Notes: a model not told the origin generated them from the letters alone. Positions 3,404 through 30,615 are shown, counted from the stretch's first letter. The stretch: DNA of 32,000 nucleotides from Candidatus Scalindua sp. (GCA_031316235.1 JALDRA010000001.1:3900001-3932000); one strand, 5' to 3'. Program-made: numbers and translations.

Positions 3404-3444
3404 TAGCTGCAATCAATCTTTTGTTTTTAGAAAAATTTAACATA

Positions 3445-3462
3445 GATCGGTTTTCGTATATC
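3445..3462 (-). repeat. intergenic box family B (GATATAC[TGA]AAAACCGAT), copy 1
   Basis: The reverse complement reads gatatacgaaaaccgatc. It lies about 115 nt upstream of the start of the hypothetical gene. Confidence 0.5.
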
Positions 3463-4835: not shown

Positions 4836-5890
4836 GACAACATATTCAAACGCCGGGGTACCCGGTCCCCTATCTCTATCTGCATATCCTCTTTTCTGAT
4901 TCTCTCGCCTTCGAATGCCGGGCCGTATGCAACCGGAATATCCACCTTCGCGGCAGCTACCTTTAACCCCCTCACCTCAATGCACTTTTCTACAATCTTA
5001 TCATGAGAAATATTGGGCACCACATGCTCATACGTACAAACACCTGTCGGCAAAACAGAAGGTATATCGGTATCCGCTATGGTCGGAAAACCATAGTTGA
5101 TAGCTCCCGCAGCATTTGCATATTTTTCATCATCCACCTCGCCCAGCGCCATGACAAAGGCAAAAATCCTGTTTTTATTGTAGAGCAGATTCCTCCTGAA
5201 GTCTCCTGCTTTTATACCTCCAAAAGATAACGCGGCTTTATTTGCAAATCCAAGGGAATAGATAGTAGCGGTAATGCTCTTGCCAAACGGTACAAGTCTT
5301 GTCTCCCACCCAAGCTGTACACCCTCTTCATCAAGCTGCTCCGCGAAAGATTTGCCGTTTGTGTTACCGGAGATAAAAACATACAGGTTTTTCTCCTGCA
5401 ACTCGCGCGCTATCTTCACGGCAATCTCATTTGTGGGCGCAGCTCCAACAACCGCAGCAAACCCCGGAGCAGTGCCGTCAACAAACTCTATCCCGCGTTC
5501 CCGCAGAATAACGTCACTCGCAGCTCCCAGCCATATCCCCTCTACAGGGTTCGGGCCGATAAGGTATTTACACGCCTCTAATACCTCCTCTGCAAAAAGC
5601 GTCGCTATGCCGGCATCCAGGGCCCAGCCGAGATACGGCAGCCATACTTCTTCTTCCGGCATGGGCGGTAATAACGCCCGTGCGTGCCCGAGTGCCTCTT
5701 CGCAATCAGACAGGGTCTTTACCTTCAGTGCAGTAGCTGCGTAGATTATGGGCAGACAGTAACCGGTGTTGGGAAATTCAACCTTCGCATCTTTCCCTTT
5801 TGATTCTATTGCTTCGTTTAATTTTGCCTCTGCCTGCTTTACAATAGAATATGCACCCCGTATTGCAGCAGAACATATTATTCTTGACAT
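4832..5890 (-). CDS. acsB: acetyl-CoA synthase (AcsB), N-terminal fragment; ends prematurely after a frameshift
   Basis: Colinear with the AcsB N-terminal domain up to ...VAYGPAFEGERIRKEDMQIEIGDR. The last 10 residues (VPRRLNMLS) are out of frame, and the expected TPAFEYVV continues in the frame of 3711..4835. Confidence 0.85.
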   Translation of the reverse strand: MSRIICSAAIRGAYSIVKQAEAKLNEAIESKGKDAKVEFPNTGYCLPIIYAATALKVKTLSDCEEALGHARALLPPMPEEEVWLPYLGWALDAGIATLFAEEVLEACKYLIGPNPVEGIWLGAASDVILRERGIEFVDGTAPGFAAVVGAAPTNEIAVKIARELQEKNLYVFISGNTNGKSFAEQLDEEGVQLGWETRLVPFGKSITATIYSLGFANKAALSFGGIKAGDFRRNLLYNKNRIFAFVMALGEVDDEKYANAAGAINYGFPTIADTDIPSVLPTGVCTYEHVVPNISHDKIVEKCIEVRGLKVAAAKVDIPVAYGPAFEGERIRKEDMQIEIGDRVPRRLNMLS

Positions 5891-6041: not shown

Positions 6042-8741
6042 CTACTGGCCGTTTAATTTCTCAACTTTGATTGCACATGACTTAAGCTCAGGGATCTTAC
6101 ATATCGGGTCAAATGCATCATTAGTAAGTAAGTTTGTCAATGCATCTCTGTGATGGAATGCGAGGAACGTAACGCCCGGCTGGGCTCTGTCGGTTATGTG
6201 TACCTTTATCTCCATTTTTCCTCTCCTTGAGCTGACGAGAACCTTTTCGTTATCCTTTATATCAAATCTCCTTGCATCATACGGATTCAGTTCTAATGTC
6301 TCATCAGGCCACTTGTCATATATTTTACTTGACCTTCTCGTCATGGAACCGTTGTTATAATGCTGTCTGCGACGGCCGGTCGTAAGGATAAGCGGATACT
6401 GATCATCGGGCACTTCAGCCGATGGCATGTGTTCCCTGAAATTGAACATGGCTTTCCCACTCGGCCTGTTGAATTTCTCCTCGTACATTATAGTCGTACC
6501 CGGATGATCTATATCAGGACATGGCCACTGGATTCCGTCAGGATCAAGTTTTTCATGATTAACCCCCGCAAACATGGGAGCAAGTTCCGCAAGCTCGTCC
6601 CATATCTCAGAAGGCGAAGAATAGTTCATATTTTTTATTCCAAGCGCATTTGCCACCATGCATATGATTTCCCAGTCCGCCTTGCCTCCCAATGGTTCGA
6701 TTGCTTTCCGAATGAGCTGTATCCTTCTTTCACCATTGGTGAAGGTGCCGTCCTTCTCCACGTGACTTGAGCCGGGAAGGATTACATCGGCAAACTCAGT
6801 GGTCTCTGTCGGCACGATATCCTGCACCACGAGGAAGTCTAATTTCTTCAGCCCGCTTTTTACGAAGTTGACATTGGCATTTGTCATGGCAGGATCTTCT
6901 CCGAAGATATAGTATGCCTTTAACGTTCCCTTATTCATTGCAATGTCCATCTCCGTACAGGTTAAACCCGTCTTCTCATCAAGCTCGACACCCCAGGCCT
7001 TTTCTAATTTAGCCTTTACCTTCTTGTCATCAAGCTTCTGATAACCAACGTGTACATTAGGCAAAGCTCCCATATCACACGACCCCTGGACGTTGTTCTG
7101 GCCCCGGGTAGGATTTATTCCCACGTTCGGTCTTCCAAGATGACCGGTAACGGTAGCAAGATTAGCCAGAGACATGACGGTGGCCGTTCCGGTTGAATGT
7201 TCTGTCATACCAAGACTGTAAATAATCATTGCCTTGTCAGTCTTTGCATACATCCTGGCAGCGTCAATAATCCTGTCTTTTGGAACACCCGTGATGCCTG
7301 AAACGTATTCGGGAGTGTATTTCATCACACCTTTCTCAAGCTCTTCGAATCCTTCGGTACGTTTCCTGATAAACTCCCTGTCCTCAAGCCCTTCATTTAC
7401 GATGACATGGACCAGCCCGTTTAACAGCGCTATATTCGTGCCTGGTATCAGGTTCAGCCAGATGTCAGCCCTCTCCGCAAGCTGGGTCTTTCTCGGATCA
7501 CCTACAATCAGTTTCGTCCCGTTATCGAGCGCGTCTTTTATCTTCAGTCCGATAATAGGGTGAGCCTCATAGGGGTTAGCTCCTATTACGAACAGAAGTT
7601 CCGCGTCACGGATATGTTCAAATGAATTTGTCGCCGCACCGCTGCCGTAGCATGCCGCCAGCCCCGAAACGCTCGCGCTGTGGCATACTCTTGCGCAGTT
7701 ATCAATGTTATTGGTACCCATCATTCGACCCAGTTTCTGGAATATATAGTTTTCTTCATTTGTACATCTTGATGAAGATAAGAATCCCAGGCTGTTCGGA
7801 CCATGCTTCTTCTTAATCTCCGTAAACTTATCGGCAATGAGCGTAATCGCCTCATCCCAGCTCGCCTCTTCCAGCTTTCCGTTTTTTCGTATCAGGGGTG
7901 TAGTTATCCTGTCCTTATGATGTATGTGCTCATAGCCAAACCGGCCCTTTACACAGAGACTTCCCTTATCATTAACCGGTGCATCAAAGCACTGAGAAAT
8001 GGAGACAACCTTTTGGTCTCTGATATTTAAGTAGTAATTGCAGCCTGTTCCGCAGTAGGTACAGGTGGTTCTGACCTTCTCAAACTGCCAGGACCGTCCC
8101 TTACCTTTGGTGGATAGCTCCTGTAACGACCCAACCGGACACGCTTCTATGCACTGGCCGCAAAGCTCACAGTCACCTTCCCTGGAAATATTAGTAGTAT
8201 TCGGAGTGCCTAAGGCCGTGAATCCCTTAGCCTTAAACCCGAGAGCGAAGGAATACTGAAGTTCAGCGCAGGTTCGAGAACACCTGGCACACATGATGCA
8301 TTTATCGCGATCCCACTCAATCACCCCATTATTGGGCAGTTCTGTGAATTTTCGTATCGTCTGCTGGCTCCATTCCGCGTGTACCTCGAACTGGTAGGAA
8401 TAATTCTGGAGTTCACACATACCTGTCTTTTCACAGGTCATACAGTCATTAGGATGGTTGGCCAGTATCAGTCTCAGGTTGTTTTTCCGTAGTTCCGCAA
8501 TATTATCACTTTCTGTCGTAACTTTCATCCCATCCCAGACAGGAGTGTTACAGGCAGTTACCGGACCAAGATTCCCATCTACCTCGACAACACATATCCT
8601 GCACTGTCCAAATGGTTTCAGGAGGTCCCAATGGCATAGAGTAGGAATATGTATCTTATTTTTTTTGGCAACCTGAAGGATAGTTTCACCTTCACCTGCT
8701 TCATATTCTTTCTGGTTCATTTGAAATGTAATCTTTTTCAT
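6042..8741 (-). CDS. fdhA: formate dehydrogenase alpha subunit, molybdopterin type with an N-terminal 2Fe-2S/4Fe-4S (NuoG-like) module, cysteine variant
   Basis: ORF 6042..8756. Motifs seen: 2Fe-2S region CHWDLLKPFGQCRICVVEV, ferredoxin motifs CIMCARCSRTC and CELCGQCIEACP, Mo-bisPGD cluster CTYCGTGCN, and active site CARVCHSAS (Cys codon at 7683-7685, no in-frame TGA). I prefer the ATG at 8741 (MKKITF...) because GGGAGA lies 5-6 nt upstream. Confidence 0.9.
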   Translation of the reverse strand: MKKITFQMNQKEYEAGEGETILQVAKKNKIHIPTLCHWDLLKPFGQCRICVVEVDGNLGPVTACNTPVWDGMKVTTESDNIAELRKNNLRLILANHPNDCMTCEKTGMCELQNYSYQFEVHAEWSQQTIRKFTELPNNGVIEWDRDKCIMCARCSRTCAELQYSFALGFKAKGFTALGTPNTTNISREGDCELCGQCIEACPVGSLQELSTKGKGRSWQFEKVRTTCTYCGTGCNYYLNIRDQKVVSISQCFDAPVNDKGSLCVKGRFGYEHIHHKDRITTPLIRKNGKLEEASWDEAITLIADKFTEIKKKHGPNSLGFLSSSRCTNEENYIFQKLGRMMGTNNIDNCARVCHSASVSGLAACYGSGAATNSFEHIRDAELLFVIGANPYEAHPIIGLKIKDALDNGTKLIVGDPRKTQLAERADIWLNLIPGTNIALLNGLVHVIVNEGLEDREFIRKRTEGFEELEKGVMKYTPEYVSGITGVPKDRIIDAARMYAKTDKAMIIYSLGMTEHSTGTATVMSLANLATVTGHLGRPNVGINPTRGQNNVQGSCDMGALPNVHVGYQKLDDKKVKAKLEKAWGVELDEKTGLTCTEMDIAMNKGTLKAYYIFGEDPAMTNANVNFVKSGLKKLDFLVVQDIVPTETTEFADVILPGSSHVEKDGTFTNGERRIQLIRKAIEPLGGKADWEIICMVANALGIKNMNYSSPSEIWDELAELAPMFAGVNHEKLDPDGIQWPCPDIDHPGTTIMYEEKFNRPSGKAMFNFREHMPSAEVPDDQYPLILTTGRRRQHYNNGSMTRRSSKIYDKWPDETLELNPYDARRFDIKDNEKVLVSSRRGKMEIKVHITDRAQPGVTFLAFHHRDALTNLLTNDAFDPICKIPELKSCAIKVEKLNGQ

Positions 8742-8888
8742 GTTTTCTCCCAACATTAATTATCTAGCTTGTAGACTTTGTAAAACTGCAAATTATATTT
8801 TTGAATTACCAAAAAACACCACTTACAGGTAACGCAATTTTCACTTGTGAATCTTTTCTTTACCATTTTCTTTGCACCCTGGATAACC

Positions 8889-9040
8889 ACAAAAAAAGCC
8901 AACACCTCAACCACAATACTTTTTTTAAAGTATTCGTGAAAAAGATGCTGGCTTACTCTGCAACAATTTTTCGTAACAAAAAATCCTTGCCAAGTCTTCC
9001 TTTAAAATCGCAAAGTACCTGAATTGAAAAAAATAATCAA
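8889..9040 (-). promoter_or_regulatory. conserved leader RNA module, copy 1 (candidate riboswitch/attenuator or sRNA) upstream of fdhA
   Basis: On the sense (minus) strand: GGAAGACT at 9000-8993 and GTTGCAGAGTAAGCCAGC at 8964-8947. The terminator is GCCAGC...GTTGGC plus T7, spanning plus coordinates 8891-8952. A weak promoter is possible (TTGATT 9040-9035, 17-nt spacer, TACTTT 9017-9012). Confidence 0.7.
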
Positions 9041-9233: not shown

Positions 9234-10139
9234 TTATATTAACAGCTCTTTCCCCGTAAGCTTACTATACGCCTCAAGATATTTTTCAGACGTAATCCGG
9301 ATTATGTCTTCGGGGAGCGAAGGCGGAGATGAATTTTTATCCCATCCGGTGCTCTCCAAATAATCTCTCACGAATTGCTTGTCGAATGATGGTTGAGGTT
9401 TTCCGGGTGAGTAATTTTCCATTGGCCAGAAACGCGATGAGTCTGGAGTCAGTATTTCATCGATTAAGAGCAGTTTGTCTCCATGTTTACCCCATTCAAA
9501 TTTGGTATCACATATTATGATTCCTTTCGTCAAGGCATATTCACTTGCTTTTTCATAAATCTCTATGCTTTTTTCTCTTAACTCTTCAGCGAGTTTCTTG
9601 CCCGCAATCTGTACCAGTTCGTCGAAAGAAATGTTCTCGTCGTGTCCGGAGGTTGCCTTTGTTGACGGGGTGAAAATAGGTTCTGGAAGTTTATCGCACT
9701 CTTTCAGGCCTGCCGGCAACTTAATTCCGCATACTGTTCCGCTTCCTTTATACTCTTTCCAGCCTGAACCAGCCAAATAGCCTCGTATTATGCATTCAAC
9801 AGGAATAACGTCAACTTTTTTTACCAGCATCGTCCGGCCACTTAAGGCATCATCGTCACCTTTTTTTATTCCTTTTATTCCTTTGACTTCTGTTGTGATT
9901 AAGTGGTTTTCTGTTATATCTTCAGTGCTCTTGAACCAGAATTCCGATAAATGGGTAAGCACTTTACCTTTATATGGAATCCCATCAGGCAGCACATAAT
10001 CAAAAGCGGAAATCCTATCTGTTGCGATAATTAACAAGCTGTCATCCAACTCATAAATGTCTCTAACTTTTCCGCTGCTGTAAAGTTTCAGATAAGGAAT
10101 ATTTGTTTTTAAGAGCATAGGATTGTTTCTCTGTAACAT
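9234..10139 (-). CDS. purC: phosphoribosylaminoimidazole-succinocarboxamide (SAICAR) synthase
   Basis: The 301-aa ORF contains LYSGKVRDIYE, IIATDRISAFD and CDTKFEWG, which are typical PurC segments. Confidence 0.93.
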   Translation of the reverse strand: MLQRNNPMLLKTNIPYLKLYSSGKVRDIYELDDSLLIIATDRISAFDYVLPDGIPYKGKVLTHLSEFWFKSTEDITENHLITTEVKGIKGIKKGDDDALSGRTMLVKKVDVIPVECIIRGYLAGSGWKEYKGSGTVCGIKLPAGLKECDKLPEPIFTPSTKATSGHDENISFDELVQIAGKKLAEELREKSIEIYEKASEYALTKGIIICDTKFEWGKHGDKLLLIDEILTPDSSRFWPMENYSPGKPQPSFDKQFVRDYLESTGWDKNSSPPSLPEDIIRITSEKYLEAYSKLTGKELLI

Positions 10140-10623
10140 AATTCAAATCCCCCGGGAACTGAGATCAAAGGCTTCACTTATTTTTCTCATTCCAATTTGT
10201 TAATTCTTTTTTCAAAACTCTCGGCAGGTGATAAACAGCCATTGTTTATCACCTCAGACCAACAGATTCTCTTGTGTCTATAGTCTCCGCGTTAAACATA
10301 ATTAAATTCAAAATACCTGGTATTTCTCTTGCGGGGGAAATTATGTTTCTGTTTAATTTCTTCCACCAGGAAATTAGCTCACTTACTCTGTCTTTGTGTA
10401 TTAGCCTGCATCTCTTCCACCAACCACAATTAGGCAATACAGCTACTCTTTGTTTTTATAGCCATTCAAAGATCTCCAATCGAATCTCATCAAATGACTT
10501 GCCAAACAGATCTCCGGGCAGTACTACATGACTGCAAACATCCAGTATCTCTTTGACTTCATCTGGAATCTTCCATTCTAACCACAGCCTGTTCATCGTT
10601 TTGTTTCCACTGTAAAACGGTAA

Positions 10624-10775
10624 ACAAAAAAAGCCAATGTCTGTCTACTTCCTCTCTCTTATGAGAACAAGTAGACGAACATTGGCTTACTCTTCAACAA
10701 TCCCTGTTGACTAAAGGATTCCTGCTTAGTCTTCCTGAATCAAAAAATCATAATTCAAAGAAATACATTAGTCAA
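10624..10775 (-). promoter_or_regulatory. conserved leader RNA module, copy 2
   Basis: On the sense (minus) strand: -35 TTGACT 10775-10770, 17-nt spacer, -10 TATGAT 10752-10747. GGAAGACT lies at 10735-10728 and GTTGAAGAGTAAGCCAAT at 10698-10681. The terminator is a long hairpin with a GCCAAT:ATTGGC base plus T7 (plus coordinates 10626-10686). Confidence 0.75.
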
Positions 10776-16766: not shown

Positions 16767-16794
16767 AAAAGTGCCATCATTAAGCCGGCACTTT
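16767..16794. terminator. hairpin AAAGTGCC-N11-GGCACTTT between the convergent TolC-like and SulP genes (weak terminator candidate)
   Basis: The 8-bp stem was read directly and overlaps the stop codon of SulP copy 2. The U-tract is short, so this is a low-confidence call. Confidence 0.3.
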
Positions 16795-18423
16795 ATTTCC
16801 GACGGGAAGGGCCGAGACCCATCTGTCAAGTTTCTCGGAGTATATCTCTTCTCTGCTCTCAACACTGTCCGATTTACACTTCACCCTGACAATAATGTCT
16901 TTTTCGTCTGCCGATACAATAAAATCCTCTATGATCTCCCGCACATCGTAATCAATACTATAACATTTACTCAAATCGATAGTCAGGATTGTTCCGCTGC
17001 GTATCTTTGAGAATTCATTCAAGATAGCCCCTTTATGTAAAAAAGTAACATCTTCTGCCAGGGTCATTCTCAATTGTTTCTTCCTGTCATATATCTCAAG
17101 ATGTAAAAAGTGAGAGTTTTTGTAGTTACGGATTAATATCATGGCAATACCAACACAACATCCAAGCCCAAGCCCTACCAGTAAATCAACAAAGACAATT
17201 CCAATGACCGTAGCCACAAACGGTATGAACTGGTCCCATCCCAGACGGTATATTTCTGCAAGCAGTGAAGGCCTGGACAATTTAAACCCTACCATTAATA
17301 AAATGCATGCAAGGGCGGACAACGGTATCATATTGAGAATGCCCGGAATGAGCCCTACACAGATCATCAGAAATGAACCATGAAGTATAGTGGATAATTT
17401 AGTTCTTCCACCGGCCTGAATATTGGCAGAACTTCGAATGATCACCTGGGTAATCGGCAATCCACCAATCATTCCGGATATGATATTTCCGGTACCTTGA
17501 GCGAATAACTCCCGGTTTGTTGACGTGACTCTCTTGTGAGTATCCAGTTTATCCGTGGCTTCCACGCACAGGAGCGTTTCTAAACTGGCGGCAATTGCAA
17601 TGGTAACAGCTAAAACATACACTTCTCTATTTCCTAACTGGCTGAAATCAGGAAAAGTAAACTGATCAAAGAGTGAGGTGAAGCTGCCTGCAACCGGCAC
17701 ATGCACCAGGTGTTCAGGACCCAAGTTAAGGAGAGGAAAATAACTCTTTGTTATTATCTGGCAGCAAATAGCAGCTACGACCACAACGATTGGCCCCTGC
17801 ATCAATCTGAATAGATCGTGTTTTTTTTTCAGATACAACTCCCACAGAAGTAAAATTGCCGTTGAAATAATAGCAATAAATACCGCTCCGGGTGTTACAT
17901 GTTGAAGAAGTTTCCACAGCAAGGTAAACGTGGTATCGCCACTTTTAAATGCTGAAGAAACACTGCCCATCCACTCTTTGTCTAATCCAAGCGTATGAGG
18001 TATCTGTTTCAGGACGATGATGATGCCAAAGCCCGCCAGCATCCCCTTTATGGCCGAAGAGGGGAAATAATACCCGATGATGCCTGCCCTTACCAGGCCA
18101 AGCAGTATTTGTATCACTCCCCCAATGACAACAGCCAGTAAAAATATTTCGAAAGAACCAATTTTAGCCAGTGCATCCAGGACAATTACCGCCAGACCTG
18201 CTGCGGGGCCGCTGACCCCATGTGCGGAGTCACTGATAGACCCTACAACCATCCCCCCGATTATGGCTGCGATAAGGCCGGAAAATAAGGGAGCTCCGCT
18301 TGTCAGGGCAATTCCAAGACAGAGAGGCAGTGCGACAAATAGCACCACAATACCTGCAGGTATGTCTTGCTGAAAGTGAGACAAGATTTCAAATTTCTTT
18401 CTGCCAGTTTCAATCTTAAGCAT
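16780..18423 (-). CDS. SulP-family anion (sulfate/bicarbonate-type) permease with a STAS domain, copy 2
   Basis: The 547-aa ORF is colinear with copy 1 along its whole length and is roughly three-quarters or more identical by eye. Confidence 0.9.
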   Translation of the reverse strand: MLKIETGRKKFEILSHFQQDIPAGIVVLFVALPLCLGIALTSGAPLFSGLIAAIIGGMVVGSISDSAHGVSGPAAGLAVIVLDALAKIGSFEIFLLAVVIGGVIQILLGLVRAGIIGYYFPSSAIKGMLAGFGIIIVLKQIPHTLGLDKEWMGSVSSAFKSGDTTFTLLWKLLQHVTPGAVFIAIISTAILLLWELYLKKKHDLFRLMQGPIVVVVAAICCQIITKSYFPLLNLGPEHLVHVPVAGSFTSLFDQFTFPDFSQLGNREVYVLAVTIAIAASLETLLCVEATDKLDTHKRVTSTNRELFAQGTGNIISGMIGGLPITQVIIRSSANIQAGGRTKLSTILHGSFLMICVGLIPGILNMIPLSALACILLMVGFKLSRPSLLAEIYRLGWDQFIPFVATVIGIVFVDLLVGLGLGCCVGIAMILIRNYKNSHFLHLEIYDRKKQLRMTLAEDVTFLHKGAILNEFSKIRSGTILTIDLSKCYSIDYDVREIIEDFIVSADEKDIIVRVKCKSDSVESREEIYSEKLDRWVSALPVGNKVPA

Positions 18424-18515
18424 TTATTTCTCATCCAATAACATACAGCTGTCTCAGACAAAGCCGGTTTTAGGTTGTTTTATTGGATGCCTTCTTTACC
18501 TCACTCTATGATATC

Positions 18516-18533
18516 TGATATACTAAAACCGAT
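18516..18533 (+). repeat. intergenic box family B, copy 2 (porin-SulP spacer)
   Basis: Sequence gatatactaaaaccgatt. Confidence 0.5.
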
Positions 18534-18586
18534 TACGGCACCGTGACGGTTGATTATCAAAATAATGAGGTCATCAAAACTCAGCG

Positions 18587-19510
18587 TTAGAATTCCCATT
18601 TGAATTTTACTCCCCATGCACTGTTGGCCTCATGATTAAGGAGATCGCCGAAGTGCATATAGGCTATTGACATAGTCAAATGGTCATTAGCTATATACGT
18701 TATAAAACCGTCCCACCAATCATCTTCTTCTGCAATGAGTCCCGGGATTTTATCGTATTGATCAGGTTTTTGACGATACTCCCCACCTATCACAAGATTG
18801 TCCAGGGCCAGGACACCAAAGTTGCCTTCAAAGACGGTTTTCCGATTCTCAGTAAAGCCAAGCAGGCCAATCTGGGCAGCTTCAGTAGACCTGACACCCA
18901 CATTTATCATGAGAGGCCGCGGCAGTGATGTAATCATTTTAGATGCATAAAGAGTTACATCAACTCCATCGTCATCCTTGATACCTATAGCATTAAGTCC
19001 TCCCTGCAAACGTCTGTCTATGACTTCAGAATCATTGTTGTTCTTATAGTGCAGCCCCAACGTCAGGGCCGGCATCCATGATTTCTTAAAGTCCCCCTCT
19101 TTCAGTATCTGAAACCTGGTGTTAAAGTTATGCATATATATTGAATCCTCTATAGTGTCTATACCGGTACCTGCCCGGATATCCCTGGGTAAATCACCTA
19201 AATCAAGATGGTTTAAAGAATACCCAAATTCAAGCCGGCCCCACAGAGTTTCAGATACGGTAAATGCTTCCATGTGTCTTCCATGACCAATGTTAGCATA
19301 TGTCACACCACCGGCCGGCAGCCCGAAAACCCTGCCCTCTTCTGATGGATTTATGAGATAGGCGGAGCCGGTTATGAGGATTCCTCCAAACCCTTCAATA
19401 TTTTGTAATGGAAGTGGTGGAGCCTTCACTTTCTCTCCTGCAAACACGGTTTGGGCTGTCATGATAAGCACAAGGTAAACCAGACTATTGATCATAGATA
19501 TTTTCTTCAT
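18587..19510 (-). CDS. secreted outer-membrane beta-barrel (porin-like) protein, family not identified
   Basis: It has a signal peptide MKKISMINSLVYLVLIMTAQTVFAGE, an alternating amphipathic pattern and the C-terminal signature ...WGVKFKWEF. GGAGG lies 8 nt upstream of the ATG. Confidence 0.65.
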   Translation of the reverse strand: MKKISMINSLVYLVLIMTAQTVFAGEKVKAPPLPLQNIEGFGGILITGSAYLINPSEEGRVFGLPAGGVTYANIGHGRHMEAFTVSETLWGRLEFGYSLNHLDLGDLPRDIRAGTGIDTIEDSIYMHNFNTRFQILKEGDFKKSWMPALTLGLHYKNNNDSEVIDRRLQGGLNAIGIKDDDGVDVTLYASKMITSLPRPLMINVGVRSTEAAQIGLLGFTENRKTVFEGNFGVLALDNLVIGGEYRQKPDQYDKIPGLIAEEDDWWDGFITYIANDHLTMSIAYMHFGDLLNHEANSAWGVKFKWEF

Positions 19511-19639
19511 ATATTTCCTCCAATCTAATAAAGGTAGAATTAACTAATTAATACAGGCATACTATTATTTTCTTTTTCAGTCATGATGCAGTTTCAATGG
19601 CTCAGTCTTCCCTCACCGGTTTATTATATTTGCGTATAA

Positions 19640-19825
19640 GCAAAAAAAGCCAACTCCCTACCACCTGTCCATTCATCATGAGAACAGTATGATAGGTGTT
19701 GGCTTACTCTTCAACGGCCCCTTTTATTTAAAGTGCCTTTGCTTAGTCTTCCCCCACTGCTTCAAACAAACTTCCTCTCAACACTACAAATTTACTATCA
19801 TATTTTCATCCGCAATCATAGTCAC
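19640..19825 (-). promoter_or_regulatory. conserved leader RNA module, copy 3, upstream of the porin-like/SulP operon
   Basis: On the sense (minus) strand: -35 GTGACT 19825-19820, 17-nt spacer, -10 TATGAT 19802-19797. GGAAGACT lies at 19752-19745 and GTTGAAGAGTAAGCCAAC at 19715-19698. The terminator is GCCAAC...GTTGGC plus T7 (plus coordinates 19642-19703). Confidence 0.75.
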
Positions 19826-19890
19826 TAAATTGTTCCAGCCAGATTCTCCATTATACACGGGTTATTTTTAATTAGACAATAGAGTTATTG

Positions 19891-20265
19891 TCATGCTATT
19901 TCCTTATTCTTAAGCCTTGATTCCAGATTCTGCTCTAATATGAAAACAATTACCCTCTCTCCTGTTTTTGTGCTTATATCAGAGTGTAAACTTTTTATCC
20001 TGCATCCCGTAATTTCTATAATAATATTTTTCAATAAAGCCTTGGCTCCCTCTAATAATTGAACATGAGTTTCCTTTACCAAAGCTGCACCCTCCGAGGT
20101 TTTAGCCAACTGTTCTTCAGCCGGAGTCAGCACACCTTTAAGCTGTACGTATATAACATCCTTTATAATGTAGATAACTGTTTCTATAGGGCATCTACCC
20201 ATAAATTCTTGTTCAAACTTTATGATTGCTTCACTGATTTTTGCTTCGAATTGACACTTAGTCAT
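19891..20265 (-). CDS. DUF2294 / MpsC-family protein, copy 1
   Basis: ORF 19891..20460. The N-terminal 65 codons cover the leader module, so I place the start at ATG 20265 (MTKCQFEAKISEAIIKFEQEFMGR...). That start aligns with the paralog and with DUF2294 proteins (LKGVLTPAEEQLAKT, HSDISTKTGERVIVF). Confidence 0.8.
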   Translation of the reverse strand: MTKCQFEAKISEAIIKFEQEFMGRCPIETVIYIIKDVIYVQLKGVLTPAEEQLAKTSEGAALVKETHVQLLEGAKALLKNIIIEITGCRIKSLHSDISTKTGERVIVFILEQNLESRLKNKEIA

Positions 20266-20320
20266 AATTGTTTTAAGGACCTCTTGCTGAGTTATCCCGC
20301 ACCAATTACCATACCCATAA

Positions 20321-20476
20321 ACAAAAAAAGCCAACCTCATGTTCTTTACATACTCTAAAAAAGAGTATAGAAAACGGGGTTGGCTTACTTCGCAACAATT
20401 ATTTTGTATAGAAAATTCCTGCTCAGTCTTCCTTATAGTAGAATCTACTATATAATCCAAATAATTAAGAAGTCAA
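20321..20476 (-). promoter_or_regulatory. conserved leader RNA module, copy 4, upstream of MpsC-like copy 1
   Basis: On the sense (minus) strand: -35 TTGACT 20476-20471, 16-nt spacer, -10 TATATA 20454-20449. GGAAGACT lies at 20432-20425 and GTTGCGAAGTAAGCCAAC at 20396-20379. The terminator spans plus coordinates 20323-20384 with T7. Confidence 0.75.
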
Positions 20477-20552
20477 GTGTTTTTTAGATTCAGGTTGTCA
20501 TTTTTCGTATCATCTCTTAAATGATTGGTTCGATAAAGTTTATCCTGTTTAA

Positions 20553-20924
20553 CTAACCTTTATATTCAGATTCTAAATCATGATCTAATATAAAAACAAT
20601 TACCCTCTCTCCTGTCTTTGTGCTTATGTCAGAATGCAGGCTCTTTGTGATGCAGCCCGTAATATCCAAAATAATATTTCTCAGTAAAGACCTTGCCCCC
20701 TCTAATAATTGAGCACGAGTCTTTTTTATCAATAATGCGCCTTCAGAGGTCTTGGCAAGTTGCTCTTCAGCCGGGGTAAGGACGCCCTTAAGCCGAACTA
20801 ATACTACATCTTTTATAATGAAGGTATTCGTTTCCATAGGACCTCTACCCATAAAATCTTTTTCAAACTTTATCAATGCCTCGCTTATTTTCGCTTCCAG
20901 TTGGCCTTTGGTTAACTTTCCCAT
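20553..20924 (-). CDS. DUF2294 / MpsC-family protein, copy 2
   Basis: ORF 20553..20957 begins with a GTG. The ATG at 20924 gives MGKLTKGQLEAKISEALIKFEKDFMGRGP..., a typical DUF2294 N-terminus. Confidence 0.8.
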   Translation of the reverse strand: MGKLTKGQLEAKISEALIKFEKDFMGRGPMETNTFIIKDVVLVRLKGVLTPAEEQLAKTSEGALLIKKTRAQLLEGARSLLRNIILDITGCITKSLHSDISTKTGERVIVFILDHDLESEYKG

Positions 20925-20954
20925 ATGATTAAATATAAGAGTAATTATTTTGTA

Positions 20955-20976
20955 CACTAAAACCGATTTGGTTTTC
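20955..20976 (+). repeat. intergenic box family B, copy 3 (immediately upstream of MpsC-like copy 2)
   Basis: Sequence actaaaaccgatttggttttcg, containing the AAAACC-N5-GGTTTT palindrome. Confidence 0.55.
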
Positions 20977-21137
20977 GCTTAAAGAGAAAGAATAGATAAA
21001 TAATTACCAAAATCAAGAAGTATTTGGAAAATTATTTTTTATACCTATTGAGGTAATGGGAAATAACAAGACAAGCAGGGGAGATTTTTTTACAATTTGA
21101 AAATATGGCATAAGGGAAAAATAAGCCGTTAAAAGAA

Positions 21138-21289
21138 TTGACTATTTAATCTTTTTGGATTATAATGCCGCGCAAGTAAGGAAGACTGTACAAGAATTTC
21201 TAAAACCAAAGAAATTGTTGAAGAGTAAGCCAACATCAATTTCCAGACGTTATGTAAAAGAAAATCAGGAAATAGTGTTGGTTTTTTTG
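21138..21289 (+). promoter_or_regulatory. conserved leader RNA module, copy 5, upstream of oadGBA
   Basis: -35 TTGACT 21138-21143, 17-nt spacer, -10 TATAAT 21161-21166. GGAAGACT lies at 21180-21187 and GTTGAAGAGTAAGCCAAC at 21217-21234. The terminator is GCCAAC (21229-21234)...GTTGG (21277-21281) plus T7 (21282-21288). Confidence 0.8.
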
Positions 21290-21388
21290 TATCCACTGTG
21301 TATCAATTATGATTGGAATGAAAAGATATTATACTTCACCTTTATACGACAGTAAAACAGTCCACCGTTATCGGGGCATACTGCTATT

Positions 21389-21667
21389 ATGGAAATCAAA
21401 TTAAGTATTCAGAATATCCTGGATGGACGGGGTTTCGACATCTCAATTACCGGTATGGTGGTTGTATTTACAGCACTTGCCTTGATAAGTGCCTTTATCT
21501 CCCTCCTTCCCGCTATTTTGAGGATAGTTAACAGGATATTTCCGCAGGAAGAAGCTTCCCATGCCCCTTCTCTGTCACGGAGTTCGCATACACCGGAAAA
21601 TGAGGTGATAGCAGCAATCGGATTCGCTCTTCACATGGCAAAGGAAAAACATGTTTTTAACGATTAA
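21389..21667 (+). CDS. oadG: Na+-pump decarboxylase gamma subunit (OadG family)
   Basis: The 92-aa protein has a single N-terminal TM helix (ITGMVVVFTALALISAFISLL) and sits immediately upstream of the beta subunit. Confidence 0.7.
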   Translation: MEIKLSIQNILDGRGFDISITGMVVVFTALALISAFISLLPAILRIVNRIFPQEEASHAPSLSRSSHTPENEVIAAIGFALHMAKEKHVFND

Positions 21668-21747
21668 ATAGCGTATTGAATGGAAATTAACCTGTTTTTT
21701 GGAATGGATTACAACTAACATCTACCTGATATTTCGAGAGGATATAA

Positions 21748-22875
21748 TTGGAAATTTTTTATGAGTTTCTTAATACAACCGGTTTTGCAATGATGACATG
21801 GGGCAATGCTATCATGATACTGGTAGGTATCATTTTTGTCTCTCTTGCCATTATCAAAGATTATGAGCCTTTGCTGCTTCTCCCTATCGGATTTGGGGCA
21901 ATCGTTGGAAATATACCTTCAATTCAGGGAATGGCCCTTAATGTATACGATGAAGGAAGCGTTCTGAGTTATCTGTACTATGGTGTCAGCAAGGGTATAT
22001 TCCCCCCTATTATATTTCTTGGTATCGGAGCCATGACAGATTTTTCCACTATGCTCTCTAATCCCAAGCTGGTTCTGCTTGGTGCGGCAGCCCAGATAGG
22101 GATATTCCTGACGCTAATCGGCGCCTTGTATCTGGGGTTTCCTCCTTCAGATGCCGCATCCATAGGGATCATAGGTGGCGCGGATGGACCTACAGCAATA
22201 TTTTTGTCAGCTAAACTTGCTCCGCATCTTTTAGGTTCTATTGCCATAGCCGCCTATTCGTACATGGCCCTTGTCCCGGTAATACAACCTCCGATAATGA
22301 GACTGCTTACTACCAGAAAGGAACGTCTGATACGGATGAAAGCACCAAGACATGTGCCACAGCGGGAAAAAATCATTTTCCCGGTTGCAGCTTTTCTTGT
22401 TGCCGCATTGATTGCTCCGGGTGCCCTGGTGCTCATAGGAATGCTTTTCCTCGGAAATCTCTTAAAGGAAAGTTGTGTGACAGAACGTCTGGCTAATACA
22501 GCACGTAATGCGATGATTGATATCGTAACAATCTTTCTCGGATTTTCAGTCGGGGCGAGTACCCAGGCACAAACCTTTCTGACCCATCAATCGCTACTTA
22601 TTTTTGGTCTGGGTGCCTTGTCATTTGCTATAGCAACTGCAGGCGGCGTACTTTTTGCCAAGTTAATGAACCTCTTTATTCGTGAAAAGATAAATCCTCT
22701 TATCGGAGCTGCTGGTGTATCTGCGGTACCTGACTCTGCACGAGTTGTTCAGATGGTTGGACAGAAAGAGGATCCGCACAATTTCCTGCTTATGCATGCC
22801 ATGGCCCCCAATGTAGCCGGGGTAATCGGCTCGGCTATCTGTGCAGGTATTTTATGGTCTGTACTGGTAAAATAA
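21748..22875 (+). CDS. oadB: Na+-translocating decarboxylase beta subunit (OadB/GcdB/MmdB family)
   Basis: The 375-aa polytopic protein starts colinear with OadB (..[20 protein letters not shown]). It uses a TTG start with GAGAGGA 6 nt upstream. Confidence 0.88.
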
Positions 22876-22929
22876 GGTAATAATTATTTCTTAACTGGTA
22901 TTGCGAGAGAGCAGACATACTCATTGCAT

Positions 22930-22970
22930 AAGGGTTTTTGGATAAAATCCGAGATAAAATTGAGCGAGTA
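22930..22970 (+). repeat. intergenic repeat family A, copy 2 (oadB-oadA spacer)
   Basis: Sequence aagggtttttggataaaatccgagataaaattgagcgagta. Confidence 0.6.
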
Positions 22971-23112
22971 TACCTTCACCAAGATTTGGTATAGCATAAA
23001 GGATAATAAGAAATCTGATATCTGATTTAAGAAGAGCATGTATGTTTATAATTAATTTCCATCTGTAAAATTCTATAGAAGCAGGATTTTGTTTTGGTTT
23101 TGAGGGAGAAGT

Positions 23113-24933
23113 ATGACAAAGAAGATAAAATTCATGTGTACAGCCTTTCGTGATGGCTTTCAATCTGTATATGGTGCGAGGGTATTAACCAGGGATTTTC
23201 TCCCTGCTGTTGAAGCGGCCAGGGATGCGGGTCTTTATTACCTGGAGGCCGGTGGAGGAGCCCGTTTCCAATCTCTATACTTTTATTGCAACGAAGATGC
23301 CTTTACCATGATGGATGATTTCCGTAAGACTGCAGGGCCGGATGCAGAACTGCAGACCCTTGCCCGTGGTGTTAATGTCGTCGCCCTGGATTCTCAGCCA
23401 AGCGATTTTATTACGCTCCACGCTCAGCTCTTTAAAAAACACGGTATTACGACGATACGCAACTTTGATGCACTTAATGATGTAAGGAATCTCATATTCA
23501 GCGGTAAAAGTATTGTTGATGCCGGACTGAAACACCAGGTATGCATTACCATGATGGAGTTGCCTCCAGGTTGCACGGGTGCACATGATCCGGAGTTTTA
23601 TCTCGGCATCCTGCGCCAGATATTGGATGCAGAGATTCCTTTTCATTCCATATGCTTCAAAGATGCTTCCGGTACGGCAGTACCATCAAAGGTTTACGAG
23701 ACAATCAAACAGGCGAGAACAATGGTCCCTGCAGATACATCCATTCATTTCCATACACATGAAACCGCCGGAATCGGAGTCAGTGCCAACAAGGCAGCAA
23801 TTGACGGCGGTGCAGATGCTATTGATCTCTCGATGGCACCATGTTCAGGAGGCACCTGTCAACCCGACATACTGGTGATGTGGCACGCATTGAGAGGGTC
23901 TGGTTATGATCTTGATGTAGATATTGATAAGGTGCGAAAGGTAGAAGAAATCTTCAAGGAGTGTATGAAAGAGTATTTTCTTCCGCCTGAGGCGACTGCT
24001 GTTGAGCCCATGATTCCCTGGTGTCCCATGCCGGGTGGTGCCCTTACGGCCAATACCCAGATGCTTCGTGATAACAATATCATGGAAAAATATCCGGATA
24101 TCATAAAGGCTATGAGCGAAGTGGTCCGAATGGGTGGGTACGGAACATCTGTAACGCCTGTTTCTCAGTTTTACTTCCAGCAGGCATTCAATAATGTCAT
24201 GTTTGGTCCGTGGAAAAAGATTGCACCGGGTTACGGTAAAATGGTCCTCGGTTATTTTGGAAAAACCCCTGTGTCACCAGATCCTGAGATCGTTAACATT
24301 GCATCTGCTCAACTCAAGCTCAAACCAACAGAGGCGTCACCACTTGAAATTGATGACAAAGATCCGGAGAAGAGTGTCGAACACGTTCGTAGCATTCTAA
24401 AAGAAATGAATATTGATGAGACAGATGAAAATCTCTTCATCGTTGCTACATGCAAAGAGAAGGGGGTAAAATATCTTAAAGGAGATGCTGAAACAGGAAT
24501 CCGTAAGATTATGAAAAAAGCAGATTCAGCAGCACCCCAGACACCTGTTAACCAGAAAACCGGCAGAGCAGAATATACGTTGAAAGTTAATGAGAAAAGT
24601 TATTCAATTGAATTAGAAGGAAGCAGGGTAAAAGTAAACGGCAACGTTTATCAGGTAGACATGCAGGGAGAGAAAAGCACCTCACAGGAGAGCAGTTCTG
24701 CAGGTGCCGGTGGAACTGACCAAACCGCCGTGAAGGCCCAAATGCCGGGCAAAGTAATACGTTTAACTGCAAGAGTCGGAGATCGGCTAAAAGCGGGCCA
24801 ATCAATCCTGATAGTAGAAGCAATGAAAATGGAAATACACGTTTCAAGTCCCATAGAAGGTACGCTGTGCGACATAAGCGTCCAGGAGGGAGACCAGATA
24901 ACCACTGGACAAACTCTAGCTACAATGAAGTAA
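23113..24933 (+). CDS. oadA: oxaloacetate decarboxylase alpha subunit / pyruvate carboxylase subunit B type (carboxyltransferase plus biotinyl domain)
   Basis: It has an N-terminal carboxyltransferase motif (AFRDGFQS) and HTHETAGIG, and a C-terminal biotinyl domain with EAMKME. GGGAG lies upstream of the ATG. Confidence 0.88.
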   Translation: MTKKIKFMCTAFRDGFQSVYGARVLTRDFLPAVEAARDAGLYYLEAGGGARFQSLYFYCNEDAFTMMDDFRKTAGPDAELQTLARGVNVVALDSQPSDFITLHAQLFKKHGITTIRNFDALNDVRNLIFSGKSIVDAGLKHQVCITMMELPPGCTGAHDPEFYLGILRQILDAEIPFHSICFKDASGTAVPSKVYETIKQARTMVPADTSIHFHTHETAGIGVSANKAAIDGGADAIDLSMAPCSGGTCQPDILVMWHALRGSGYDLDVDIDKVRKVEEIFKECMKEYFLPPEATAVEPMIPWCPMPGGALTANTQMLRDNNIMEKYPDIIKAMSEVVRMGGYGTSVTPVSQFYFQQAFNNVMFGPWKKIAPGYGKMVLGYFGKTPVSPDPEIVNIASAQLKLKPTEASPLEIDDKDPEKSVEHVRSILKEMNIDETDENLFIVATCKEKGVKYLKGDAETGIRKIMKKADSAAPQTPVNQKTGRAEYTLKVNEKSYSIELEGSRVKVNGNVYQVDMQGEKSTSQESSSAGAGGTDQTAVKAQMPGKVIRLTARVGDRLKAGQSILIVEAMKMEIHVSSPIEGTLCDISVQEGDQITTGQTLATMK

Positions 24934-24935
24934 AT

Positions 24936-25679
24936 CTACCGGGATATGTCAGCGGCCCAGATCTCACGCATTACGCCGTCTTCAACACGAAGAAGGAGTT
25001 GTCCTTTTTCACCAAAACCTGCGAGTGTGCCGGTCTGTCTATCCAATCCATCACCAACAGTAACTGACTCGCCCACCGAAACACAACGGGCTATCCAATC
25101 TTCACGAATGGCAGGAAATCCTCCCACCTCCCAGCGATTAATCCATTCAGGTAATATCTCCAAAAGGGTATCAAGCACACTCTTTATTGCATACTTTTTC
25201 CCTGTCTCTATCCTGAGAGAAGTCGCAGTCTTTATGAGAGTCTCTTCTTCACGATCCTGCATGTTTACGTTTATTCCTACCCCGACCACAATCGCTTGTC
25301 CCTGTTCGTATCGAATCTCACTTTGCTCGGAAAGGATTCCCCCTATCTTCTGACCTCTGACGAGAATGTCGTTAGGCCACTTTGTTTGTGTGAGAATACC
25401 GAAGGTATCCAACGCTGAAGCAGTCCCTAACGCTATTGCCTGTGAAAGTGAAGCCAAATCTTCAAGATCCTTACGGGTAGAAATAACAAATGAAAAAGTT
25501 AAATCCCGCCCAGCCTTGGAAATCCAATGACGATTATAACGCCCATGCCCCGCAGTCTGTTCGAGTGCCGCCAGAACAAAGCCGGGAGATGGCCTTGTCT
25601 CTTCATTCTTCAGCAAATCTAACAGAACGGTGTTTGTCGATGAAAGTTTGTCGTGCCACTCTGGATCAAGAAATTTCAT
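24936..25679 (-). CDS. birA: biotin--protein ligase (group I, no HTH domain)
   Basis: The 247-aa ORF has a GHGRYNRHW biotinyl-AMP loop (GRGRxGRxW type) and KWPNDI. It is convergent with oadA, with 2 nt between the stop codons. Confidence 0.88.
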   Translation of the reverse strand: MKFLDPEWHDKLSSTNTVLLDLLKNEETRPSPGFVLAALEQTAGHGRYNRHWISKAGRDLTFSFVISTRKDLEDLASLSQAIALGTASALDTFGILTQTKWPNDILVRGQKIGGILSEQSEIRYEQGQAIVVGVGINVNMQDREEETLIKTATSLRIETGKKYAIKSVLDTLLEILPEWINRWEVGGFPAIREDWIARCVSVGESVTVGDGLDRQTGTLAGFGEKGQLLLRVEDGVMREIWAADISR

Positions 25680-26578: not shown

Positions 26579-26650
26579 AGTATCTCCAATTTCTGATCAA
26601 TAGCTTTATCGTAAAAAATAATGGCACGTTTAGAGTAGATGGTTTCCAGT

Positions 26651-26685
26651 AAAACCGAAAACCAAATCGGTTTTAGTATATATCA
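26651..26685 (-). repeat. intergenic box family B, copy 4 (upstream of yggS), extended palindrome
   Basis: The reverse complement reads gatatatactaaaaccgatttggttttcggtttt, with AAAACCGA-N8-TCGGTTTT arms. Confidence 0.55.
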
Positions 26686-29402: not shown

Positions 29403-29425
29403 TTATACAAAAACCGATTTGGTTT
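29403..29425 (+). repeat. intergenic box family B, copy 5 (prfA-prmC spacer, next to the family A copy)
   Basis: Sequence ttatacaaaaaccgatttggttt. Confidence 0.5.
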
Positions 29426-29460
29426 AAGATTTTTCTAAAAATCAAAGCCTGGCTGCAGTT

Positions 29461-29503
29461 GTACTCGTTCCGTTTTTTTTCGGATTTTATCCGGAAACTC
29501 TTA
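29461..29503 (-). repeat. intergenic repeat family A, copy 3 (prfA-prmC spacer)
   Basis: The reverse complement reads taagagtttccggataaaatccgaaaaaaaacggaacgagtac. Confidence 0.55.
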
Positions 29504-29517
29504 CAAGATGAGCATAG

Positions 29518-30615
29518 TTACAAACTCTCCGTCAATTGTTTAATCCTTTCTTCTTTGCCATGATTTATCATTGCCCCGACCAATTCATCCATCTCACCAA
29601 GCATTATCTTTTCCAGACTGTAGAGATTAAGATTAATACGATGGTCTGTAATCCTGTTTTGTGGATAATTGTATGTGCGGATCTTTTCGCTTCTATCTCC
29701 GGATCCGATTTGAATTCGCCGGGTTTTATCACGCTCTCCCTTCTTCTGATCTTCTAGAAAACTGTAAAGGCGGCTTCGTAATATACGCATTGCCTTGGCG
29801 CGGTTCCTGTGCTGAGATTTTTCGTCCATGCACTTCACGACCAGCCCTGTTGGTTCATGGGTGATCCTGATCGCAGAACTCGTTTTGTTTACCTTCTGAC
29901 CCCCCGGGCCGGAAGCGCGGAATGTATCAACTACAATATCCTGTGGATCAATTTTTATCTCAACTTCCTCAATCTCTGGTAAAACTGCCACTGTAGCAGC
30001 TGAAGTATGTATCCTTCCGCTTGTCTCTGTGTCAGGTACTCTTTGTACACGGTGAGTACCACTTTCATAACAAAGTTTCTGGTAAACTGAGTCGCCCTCG
30101 ATAGAGAGCGTTACTTCCTTAAAACCTCCTATCTCTGTCGGGCTGCAATCAAGTATTTCTGTTTTCCATTTCTGTTTTTCAGCATATTTCGTATACATCC
30201 TGAAGAGATCCGCAGCAAAGAGTGCGGCCTCATCGCCTCCAGTGCCTGCACGTATTTCCATTATAACGTTCTTGTCAGACTCAGCACTTTCAGTAACAAA
30301 CTGATTCTTGATTTCTTCAAAGAGTTCCTTCTCTTTTTTCTCAAGACTACGAAATTCTTCCTTGGCAAGATCGTATAAATCTCTATCTCCGTTATTCTCA
30401 GACAGTATGGTCTCTGCCTCTTCTTTCTGTCTTAACGTCTGGTCAAATTGTTGATATTTGCCGGCAAACTTTGCAAGCCTGCCATGTTCCTTCACATAAG
30501 AGGTATACCTGACATTGTCTGAAATAACTTCAGGGCTTGATAAGAGTTTTTCAAGTTTGTTATATCGATCAAACCTCTCCTGAAACTTCTTTAACAATTT
30601 CTCATGAATCTGCAT
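29518..30615 (-). CDS. prfA: peptide chain release factor 1
   Basis: The 365-aa ORF has the GGQ motif ([11 protein letters not shown]) and an RF1-type PxT tripeptide ([17 protein letters not shown]). Confidence 0.95.

Follow-up and report, generated by a model that had tools for sequence, protein, structure and literature searches.

In antitermination of the BglG family (GlcT-ptsG, LicT-bglPH, SacY-sacB), the 3' part of an imperfect looped hairpin, the ribonucleic antiterminator (RAT), is shared with the 5' arm of an intrinsic terminator; the bound protein stabilises this hairpin so that read-through follows, and the regulator gene often lies directly upstream. In HutP and PyrR attenuation in Bacillus, the gene for the regulator comes first in the operon under its control, and the pyr operon has repeated attenuators between its genes. 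Through the ZTP riboswitch (pfl motif), a purine-pathway intermediate signals a shortage of one-carbon donors and switches on purine and one-carbon (C1) genes. The Na+-I riboswitch has a P1 and a P2 stem, its conserved bases lying at the foot of P1 and in the loop of P2 (White et al. 2022, PMC9337991), and Na+-II, a variant of the nhaA-I motif, has terminator platforms and is found ahead of hypothetical genes in anaerobic Deltaproteobacteria (PMC9646797). Here we describe a hairpin element that forms five leaders in a 32,000-nucleotide (nt) stretch of DNA from Candidatus Scalindua, called the window below. The leaders are predicted to terminate transcription conditionally and belong to an RNA family that had not been described before.

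The repeat was found with the pattern GAAGACT, a spacer of 25-55 nt and AGTAAGCC, which gave five matches in the window against 0.00 expected from shuffled sequence. A covariance model (CM) later built from the repeat, and run on the window with the filters off, returned exactly five strong copies (54.8-67.2 bits), while the next match scored 14 bits. In the orientation of the downstream gene, every copy is a single irregular hairpin of about 57 nt. From the base upward it contains GG/CC closing pairs, a symmetric AAG/AAG purine loop, an ACU/AGU helix, a 3x3 internal loop and a CAR/UUG helix, followed by a purine.G (R.G) mismatch and a variable, covarying stem-loop. Sigma-70-like promoters precede leaders 2, 3, 4 and 5 at 10-45 nt. 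A sigma-54 promoter (TGGC...GCA) was also considered and was rejected, as both spacing and strand are wrong for sigma-54.

Behind each of the five hairpins there is a long GC-based hairpin with a U7 tract, i.e. an intrinsic terminator. Its 5' arm starts with AAGCC, the same five bases that form the 3' side of the hairpin base. In the minimum-energy full-length folds of leaders 1, 2, 3 and 5 the terminator was formed and only the outer GGAAG/AAGCC clamp was open; by themselves, these four terminators fold with -15 to -35 kcal/mol. The terminator of leader 4 was taken from the sequence and the alignment fold, the scripted full-length fold having ended at an internal U run. Thermodynamically the terminator prevails, and the default state is OFF.

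To place the element outside the window, we used the exact core of the pattern. A genome scan with one genome per species returned 31 loci, about two of which are estimated to be chance matches, and a metagenome scan gave at least 120 loci, with near-duplicate contigs among them. All counts of copies, loci, cargo and mpsC genes beyond the window are among the matches listed from these two scans. By CM they hold at least 210 copies, at least 189 of them distinct, in 133 loci (given below by L numbers). Two or more copies were present in 40 of the 133, which supports the clustering of the modules reported in the first-pass annotation of the window. The genome-scan loci come mostly from Ca. Scalindua, Brocadiaceae, Gemmataceae, Isosphaeraceae and other Planctomycetota, and a few from metagenome-assembled genomes labelled Aminicenantia or Cloacimonadota. 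Two loci, L015 and L019, resemble chance matches: their scores are low (22.2 and 31.8 bits), both seem to fall within coding sequence, and the inspected downstream sequence shows no terminator. We also noticed that L007 (Aminicenantia bin) and L029 (Hydrothermarchaeota bin) are identical over the motif region (hairpin and about 110 nt) and share the same motif-PEPCK (phosphoenolpyruvate carboxykinase) layout of open reading frames (ORFs); at least one of the two bin labels is probably wrong.

The paired positions covary. Over 115 distinct sequences, 86.9% of the alignment cells were paired, compared with 76.2% after shuffling and 20-44% when the partners were slid, and 11 of the 16 pairs were altered on both sides. 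The C14-G54 pair of the CAR/UUG helix was CG in 57 sequences, UA in 32 and UG in 23, and one copy carried a compensatory change of A-U to G-C in the ACU/AGU helix. About 22 nucleotides are near-invariant, an invariance that is partly imposed in the core because the loci were seeded by it and that the CM-only matches relax; the loop bases are conserved over GC contents of 29-67%. A direct-repeat DNA site (GAAGASUAAGC twice) for a DNA-binding factor was rejected, since the covariation, which includes G-U pairs, and the strand-specific terminators indicate an RNA structure and not a site at the DNA level. The first-pass view of the modules as genuine cis-regulatory leaders is supported.

The contigs were divided into low-GC and GC-rich ones as a stand-in for lineage, and each group has its own RNA subtype. 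The low-GC subtype carries C14-G54 and a G.G mismatch; the GC-rich subtype carries U14-A/G54 and an A.G mismatch, often has GGAYGACU, and varies at the middle base of the 5' AAG loop. In addition, the two subtypes go together with two MpsC subfamilies, distantly related by eye, and with different cargo.

No Rfam 15 family reached its gathering score in the window, and nothing relevant appeared at E ≤ 10 in a 1.7-kb stretch with leaders or in 10 related loci; we take the models for DUF1646 (Na+-I) and nhaA-I (Li+-I/Na+-II) to be part of that release. A description of the element was likewise not found in literature on the motif, DUF2294, Planctomycetes riboswitch candidates, a bicarbonate riboswitch or Na+-II. 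The element is a previously undescribed, widespread terminator-switch RNA family with DUF2294/MpsC as its constant partner.

The overlap with the terminator is systematic: in 178 of 186 evaluable copies the terminator pairs the GCC of the hairpin 3' strand, which argues for a default-off, effector-on design. Most of the remaining copies stand last in a tandem array, directly next to the ribosome-binding site. Such arrays of 2-4 copies were seen ahead of DUF3034, Lcl_C or DksA genes (L034 2149-2961, L077 404-1834, L084, L095, L041), and their final copy has no terminator. The window holds only a degenerate remnant of such a second tandem copy, at 19552-19613(-), which retains GGGAAGACUGAGC...AGUAUGCC and has lost the inner stem; intact tandem copies occupy the equivalent position in L034, L084, L003 and L062.

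Each module might alternatively be a small-RNA gene that gives a trans-acting transcript of about 110 nt, for example one titrating MpsC or another protein, with read-through being incidental. The near-consensus promoters directly upstream, the strength of the terminators and the many copies per genome neighbourhood would agree with this. However, the copies are always oriented as the next gene, stand at leader-like distances from it and also occur between genes inside operons, the last tandem copies abut the ribosome-binding site with no terminator, and the regular overlap of hairpin and terminator implies switching. We therefore consider small-RNA genes improbable.

The protein family that accompanies the element was identified from its cargo. 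The first three ORFs after each distinct copy were clustered, and the clusters were named via Pfam or by likeness to window proteins; ORF calling was crude in the GC-rich contigs. DUF2294 was the only family common to low-GC and GC-rich cargo and formed the largest cluster, with 34 ORFs. By tblastn, mpsC was found in 26 of 44 low-GC and 28 of 88 GC-rich loci, and 62 of the 75 mpsC genes in these RNA-seeded loci were directly flanked by the element. In the low-GC group a same-strand copy followed mpsC within 500 nt in 24 of 31 cases, typically 40-180 nt beyond the gene, and only two genes were preceded by one; the upstream mpsC of such units usually has no motif of its own. GC-rich mpsC genes were preceded by a copy in 16 of 44 cases, followed in 11 and divergent from it in 16. 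Behind the mpsC-motif unit the cargo changes: PEPCK, purE, pyruvate carboxylase, an aminotransferase, DUF3034-SulP, unk214 or stress genes.

The window itself has two mpsC paralogues, 73% identical. The leaderless mpsC_b, which had escaped the first-pass annotation, heads the minus-strand array between leaders 4 and 5, with no CM match upstream, and is divergent from motif-oadGBA; then come motif-mpsC_a and motif-DUF3034-SulP. The same layout with wholly different cargo was seen in Tepidisphaeraceae contigs at 60% GC (L164, L167, L170), and locus L035 reads motif-mpsC-motif-gene-motif-gene. This consistent flanking makes MpsC likelier as the effector than as a cargo gene. In L155-L158 (about 6424-7127) a HEPN/nucleotidyltransferase toxin-antitoxin pair lies between mpsC and the pyruvate-carboxylase motif.

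We propose that MpsC/DUF2294-dependent antitermination operates the element, an explanation to which we give about an even chance, with binding of the RNA by MpsC predicted from gene order and by analogy. Transcription would start about 10-45 nt ahead of the element, and the first 57 nt or so would form the irregular hairpin, the AAGCC 3' strand of which doubles as the start of the terminator 5' arm. When no effector is present, the terminator would form and the genes would be OFF. An effector that clamps the GGAAG/AAGCC module would withhold the base of the terminator stem, giving read-through and the ON state. DUF2294/MpsC may be this effector, acting as an RNA-binding antiterminator; the leaderless mpsC paralogue would provide the regulator, and its site directly follows. 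For the Scalindua type, the best guess for the signal sensed by MpsC is one linked to inorganic carbon. MpsC antitermination is ranked first because the regulator gene travels with the site before changing cargo and because the geometry is RAT-like.

The likeness to RAT sites lies in the irregular hairpin, the variable apex and the 3' part that overlaps the terminator, and the mpsC-motif-cargo order, with mpsC as the putative regulator and its frequent adjacency to the element, is that of glcT-RAT-ptsG and licT-RAT-bglPH. On the other hand, the element is unrelated to RAT in sequence, its hairpin is longer (about 52 nt), and its regulon concerns carbon fixation or stress and not sugars of the phosphotransferase system. 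The flanking protein has a Pfam MpsC domain only, with no CAT or PRD domain, so the system does not belong to the BglG family and the resemblance is in working only. Similarly, the hutP-terminator-hutHUIG and pyr layouts resemble L035 and the motif/mpsC arrays of the window, but HutP binds UAG repeats, PyrR promotes termination via an anti-antiterminator, and both are unrelated to DUF2294.

Several observations weigh against a role for MpsC in antitermination. Its AlphaFold model, though confident (pLDDT 91), matched no solved fold (best TM 0.44), no sequence relatives of MpsC were found in the PDB, and the isoelectric points of the two paralogues, 6.7 and 8.7, are near neutral. DUF2294 is common in Firmicutes; no Firmicute-labelled locus was among the 31 loci of the strict-pattern genome scan, so the protein is probably not always dependent on the RNA. 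Finally, two features of the element, its 22 or so near-invariant nucleotides and its arrays of 2-4 tandem copies (L034, L077), are characteristic of genuine riboswitches as well.

What the element controls differs sharply between the two groups of contigs. The low-GC contigs held 77 copies, 70 of them with ORFs, and a gene for handling CO2/HCO3- lay no more than three ORFs away in 50 of the 70. Recurrent operons were oadGBA; unk214-SulP, with a copy ahead of each gene; ferredoxin-fdhA; PEPCK; DUF3034-SulP-beta-carbonic anhydrase behind 2-4 tandem copies; purE, alone or as purE-carbonic anhydrase-CODH-ACS (carbon monoxide dehydrogenase/acetyl-CoA synthase); purC-mpsC-sua5, followed by an ORF that resembles biotin carboxylase by eye (a candidate only); pyruvate carboxylase B and A with BioY; and a class I/II aminotransferase. 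SulP was tied to carbonic anhydrase in three operon types, one of which, without a leader, lies at the window's left end. The link to beta-carbonic anhydrase is present for SulP2 of that operon, a paralogue of the leader-controlled SulP, and for the orthologous operons; bicarbonate is a candidate substrate.

In contrast, inorganic-carbon genes were found by the same three-ORF test in 0 of 103 contexts in the GC-rich contigs, which held 112 copies. The cargo there comprised regulators (response regulators, histidine kinases, KaiC, a sigma-70 factor, CsrA, DksA/TraR and SpoIIAA-like proteins), and stress and envelope proteins (CsbD, YflT, BON, Band_7, ice-binding-like proteins, a fatty-acid desaturase, LPG-synthase TM, a P-type ATPase, an RRM protein and PPK2). 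Judged from these families, the GC-rich cargo is a general-stress set.

The first-pass annotation had drawn a regulon island with a shared Na+ and inorganic-carbon theme, and had offered an inorganic-carbon-related signal as its more speculative idea, to be given up if genes behind additional copies showed no enrichment for ion or C1 functions. With that cargo now tabulated, the frequency of CO2/HCO3- genes in the low-GC, Scalindua-like lineages leaves the idea standing there, whereas the theme does not extend to the GC-rich Planctomycetota. Both the island and its leaning towards inorganic carbon hold up as real and are conserved across anammox-type lineages. For Scalindua, a predicted regulon of inorganic-carbon acquisition and carboxylation (oadGBA, DUF3034-SulP, formate dehydrogenase (FDH), purC) is supported. 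Biotin was also tried as a common theme (oadA, pyc, accC, bioY, biotin ligase) and was rejected, since purE, carbonic anhydrase, SulP, PEPCK and FDH do not depend on biotin.

The coherence of this CO2/HCO3- regulon bears on the possibility that the RNA is a true riboswitch. The hairpin itself would then capture its ligand, a small molecule or an ion, in the AAG/AAG loop and the loops beside it and so block termination, and MpsC would merely be the commonest neighbour. Candidate signals would be bicarbonate, a carboxylation intermediate such as 5-aminoimidazole ribonucleotide (AIR) or pH, via adenine protonation, for the Scalindua type, or else a global stress signal. Like riboswitches in general, the element joins a conserved, covarying structure to an expression platform; its loop nucleotides are strongly conserved at all GC contents, the terminator overlap is of the ON type, and tandem arrays occur. 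The enzymes that make cells CO2-dependent are purE, purC, acetyl-CoA/pyruvate carboxylase, Sua5, PEPCK, carbonic anhydrase and a bicarbonate-type permease, and the gene sets behind the element (purE, purC, carboxylases, Sua5, PEPCK, carbonic anhydrase, permease) match them. The ZTP riboswitch offers a conceptual parallel, but it differs in its pseudoknotted two-domain fold and its regulon, and its model gave no match. We know of no riboswitch for inorganic carbon. On the other side, one helix whose apex varies makes a simple fold for a selective pocket, the GC-rich subtype governs stress and regulatory genes and no inorganic-carbon genes, and a bicarbonate-driven ON switch would induce uptake genes when carbon is plentiful. 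A riboswitch also leaves unexplained why a leaderless mpsC stands immediately upstream of the element before unrelated cargo. We hold direct ligand binding by the RNA to be rather unlikely but a serious rival, the foremost one to MpsC antitermination.

A more specific form of this idea, with Na+ as the conservative choice of ligand, had been put forward in the first-pass annotation. The element would then be a Na+-sensing riboswitch of a new structural class that turns on Na+-related genes as cytoplasmic Na+ rises. Scalindua is marine, some SulP members are Na+-dependent, and P-type cation ATPases lie behind two GC-rich copies. The oadB gene encodes a Na+ pump, and oad genes are occasionally under Na+-I riboswitches (PMC9337991), which resemble the element further in being ON switches, with aptamer against terminator, and in occurring in several copies per genome on different operons. 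However, where the Na+-I motif has the two stems P1 and P2, the element has one hairpin, conserved in its internal loops and variable at its apex, and it had no Rfam 15 match even at E ≤ 10. Na+-II shares the terminator platform, but it too has a two-stem fold and no Rfam match to the element, and the D. propionicus Na+-II construct ('71 hypo') shows no similarity and lacks the GGAAGACU...AGUAAGCC core. Among about 190 downstream contexts of three ORFs each, we found no gene for Nha, NapA, Mrp, DUF1646-type proteins or a Na+-ATPase/Na+-ATP synthase. The Na+ transporter genes typical of Na+-I are thus missing and only oadGBA fits Na+ use, while there is no Na+ logic to purE, purC, PEPCK, FDH, carbonic anhydrase or CODH/ACS. 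The lack of Na+ exporters leaves the Na+ reading without support, and we judge it very improbable. Of the earlier interpretation as a whole, the regulon island with its inorganic-carbon flavour in anammox-type lineages is retained and the Na+ riboswitch is not.

The MpsC family had also been used to argue for a link to Na+ and bicarbonate through the mpsABC locus of Staphylococcus aureus. That argument drew only on the name of the gene: deletion of mpsC in S. aureus had no phenotype, and mpsC was judged to be outside MpsAB function (Fan et al. 2019, PMC6689103). Neither mpsA (NuoL-like) nor mpsB (DUF2309) was found in the window or among the Pfam gene calls of loci L153-L170.

The features of the window are collected in Table 1. 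Annotation of the proteins with Pfam profiles upheld the gene calls made at first (oadG-oadB-oadA, DUF2294/MpsC, the outer-membrane barrel gene, SulP, fdhA-acsB, purC, carbonic anhydrase), and the observation of five leader copies with terminators in front of the named genes was confirmed overall.

Table 1. Leaders, signals and genes in the 32,000-nt window (positions counted from its first letter)
Feature	Position	Strand	Basis or remark
Leader 1 hairpin, before fdhA	8946-9002	-	CM 63.9 bits
Leader 2 hairpin, purC region	10680-10737	-	CM 66.1 bits
Leader 3 hairpin, before DUF3034-SulP	19697-19754	-	CM 65.3 bits
Leader 4 hairpin, before mpsC_a	20378-20434	-	CM 54.8 bits
Leader 5 hairpin, before oadGBA	21178-21235	+	CM 67.2 bits; fold z-score -4.0
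Degenerate sixth copy, remnant of second tandem copy	19552-19613	-	CM 9.9 bits
Promoter-like site before leader 2	10747-10775	-	
Promoter before leader 4	20447-20476	-	sigma-70-like
Promoter before leader 5	21138-21166	+	sigma-70-like, TTGACT-17-TATAAT, 11/12 matches, 12 nt upstream
Leader 1 terminator	8891-8954	-	full-length fold
Leader 2 terminator	10626-10688	-	full-length fold
Leader 3 terminator	19642-19705	-	full-length fold
Leader 4 terminator	20323-20386	-	GCCAACC...GGUUGGC then U7; sequence and alignment fold
Leader 5 terminator	21227-21288	+	5' arm AAGCCAAC overlapping hairpin 3' strand; U7 tail
beta-Carbonic anhydrase	3-602	-	same operon as unk214-SulP2
SulP2	856-2553	-	Pfam; same operon as unk214
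unk214	2701-3330	-	no Pfam match
FdhA-like molybdopterin formate dehydrogenase, then acsB	6042-8756	-	Pfam
purC (SAICAR synthetase)	9234-10139	-	Pfam
SulP permease	16780-18423	-	Pfam Sulfate_transp, 1.1e-61
DUF3034 gene	18587-19510	-	Pfam; signal peptide, C-terminal ...KWEF
mpsC_a (DUF2294 paralogue a), behind leader 4	19891-20265	-	Pfam MpsC, 8.6e-35
mpsC_b (DUF2294 paralogue b), leaderless	20553-20924	-	Pfam MpsC, 2.6e-37
oadG	21389-21667	+	Pfam OAD_gamma
oadB	21748-22875	+	Pfam OAD_beta, 1.5e-153
oadA	23113-24933	+	Pfam HMGL-like, PYC_OADA and Biotin_lipoyl
Biotin ligase	24936-25679		

The oadGBA operon unites the gamma, beta and alpha (carboxyltransferase and biotinyl) subunits and is by Pfam of the Na+-pumping decarboxylase type. 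On the other side of the divergent cluster, the DUF3034 protein fits an outer-membrane barrel; a search for relatives of solved structure found none. The permease behind it had been called SulP/STAS. It has the SulP membrane domain, but Pfam detected no STAS domain at E ≤ 0.01, whether the full protein or the C-terminal 156 residues were searched. The unk214-SulP2-beta-carbonic anhydrase operon at 3-3330(-) has no motif copy in the window by CM search; in its orthologues in L001, L013, L032 and L073, unk214 and SulP are each preceded by one copy. All 117 homologues of unk214 are from Scalindua and at least 63% identical, with no Pfam match, and the predicted model of the protein (pLDDT 60) was too poor for use. 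One protein from a Candidatus Scalindua metagenome-assembled genome matches unk214 of the window with 100% identity, which assigns the window to a marine anammox planctomycete.

The two outlying leaders had been placed before fdhA-acsB and the purC region. Both genes were found, and the association of fdhA with the element recurs in L005, L023 and L025, but the start of purC is 540 nt past leader 2; in L028, where the motif is a tandem pair, the distance is 30-48 nt. The gap at 10140-10679 holds no minus-strand ORF of 80 or more amino acids. We also noticed that acsB, at 3711-5890(-), consists of two ORFs with a 4-nt overlap, the one at 4832-5890 matching CODH_A_N and CdhC positions 1-26 and the one at 3711-4835 matching CdhC 36-155 and the C-terminal domain. 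In L161 and L163 AcsB is a single ORF of 726 residues. The break may reflect a frameshift, a split gene or a mistake in the assembly.

Another family of repeats, some 125 nt long and with a mean column identity of 78%, lies at 3335-3460(+), 22900-23025(+) and 29405-29530(-). One copy fills part of the oadB-oadA spacer, which is 237 nt long here and about 62 nt in other Scalindua contigs. Because the copies are not consistently oriented relative to the genes beside them, the family resembles a small mobile or repetitive extragenic palindromic (REP)-like element more than a leader. In addition, an AU-rich palindrome, TAYACTAAAACCGATTTGGTTTT, was seen at 18512-18534, 20946-20980, 26640-26680 and 29404-29444, just upstream of SulP, the leaderless mpsC_b, a YggS-like gene and prmC, and also at the end of 3335-3460. 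It may be an operator, a promoter element or part of the 125-nt repeat.

Anammox bacteria remove a large share of oceanic fixed nitrogen; they are genetically intractable, and almost nothing is known of their regulation. The element marks a compact, conserved putative regulon for CO2 fixation and anaplerosis (FDH, CODH/ACS, carboxylases, carbonic anhydrase, SulP), and the ratio of terminated to read-through transcripts may serve as a simple RNA read-out in enrichment cultures or metatranscriptomes. The association also gives a first functional lead for DUF2294/MpsC, a family of thousands that has been named by association only. If MpsC binds the hairpin, it would represent a new antiterminator protein family; if the RNA binds a ligand itself, it would be a new riboswitch class with a regulon pointing to inorganic carbon. 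Our most far-reaching suggestion, which is speculative and which we rate as doubtful, is that DUF2294/MpsC and the hairpin together make an RNA-level sensor of inorganic carbon. Protein or RNA would respond to the supply of bicarbonate or CO2 and gate the genes for CO2 fixation, carboxylases, carbonic anhydrase and bicarbonate uptake in anammox bacteria, and a sister subtype would have been rewired to general-stress genes in soil Planctomycetota. If true, this would give a function to a large orphan family and would explain why DUF2294 is found, presumably, near ndhF-ybcC-ybcF in Bacillus and beside inorganic-carbon transporters in Staphylococcus.

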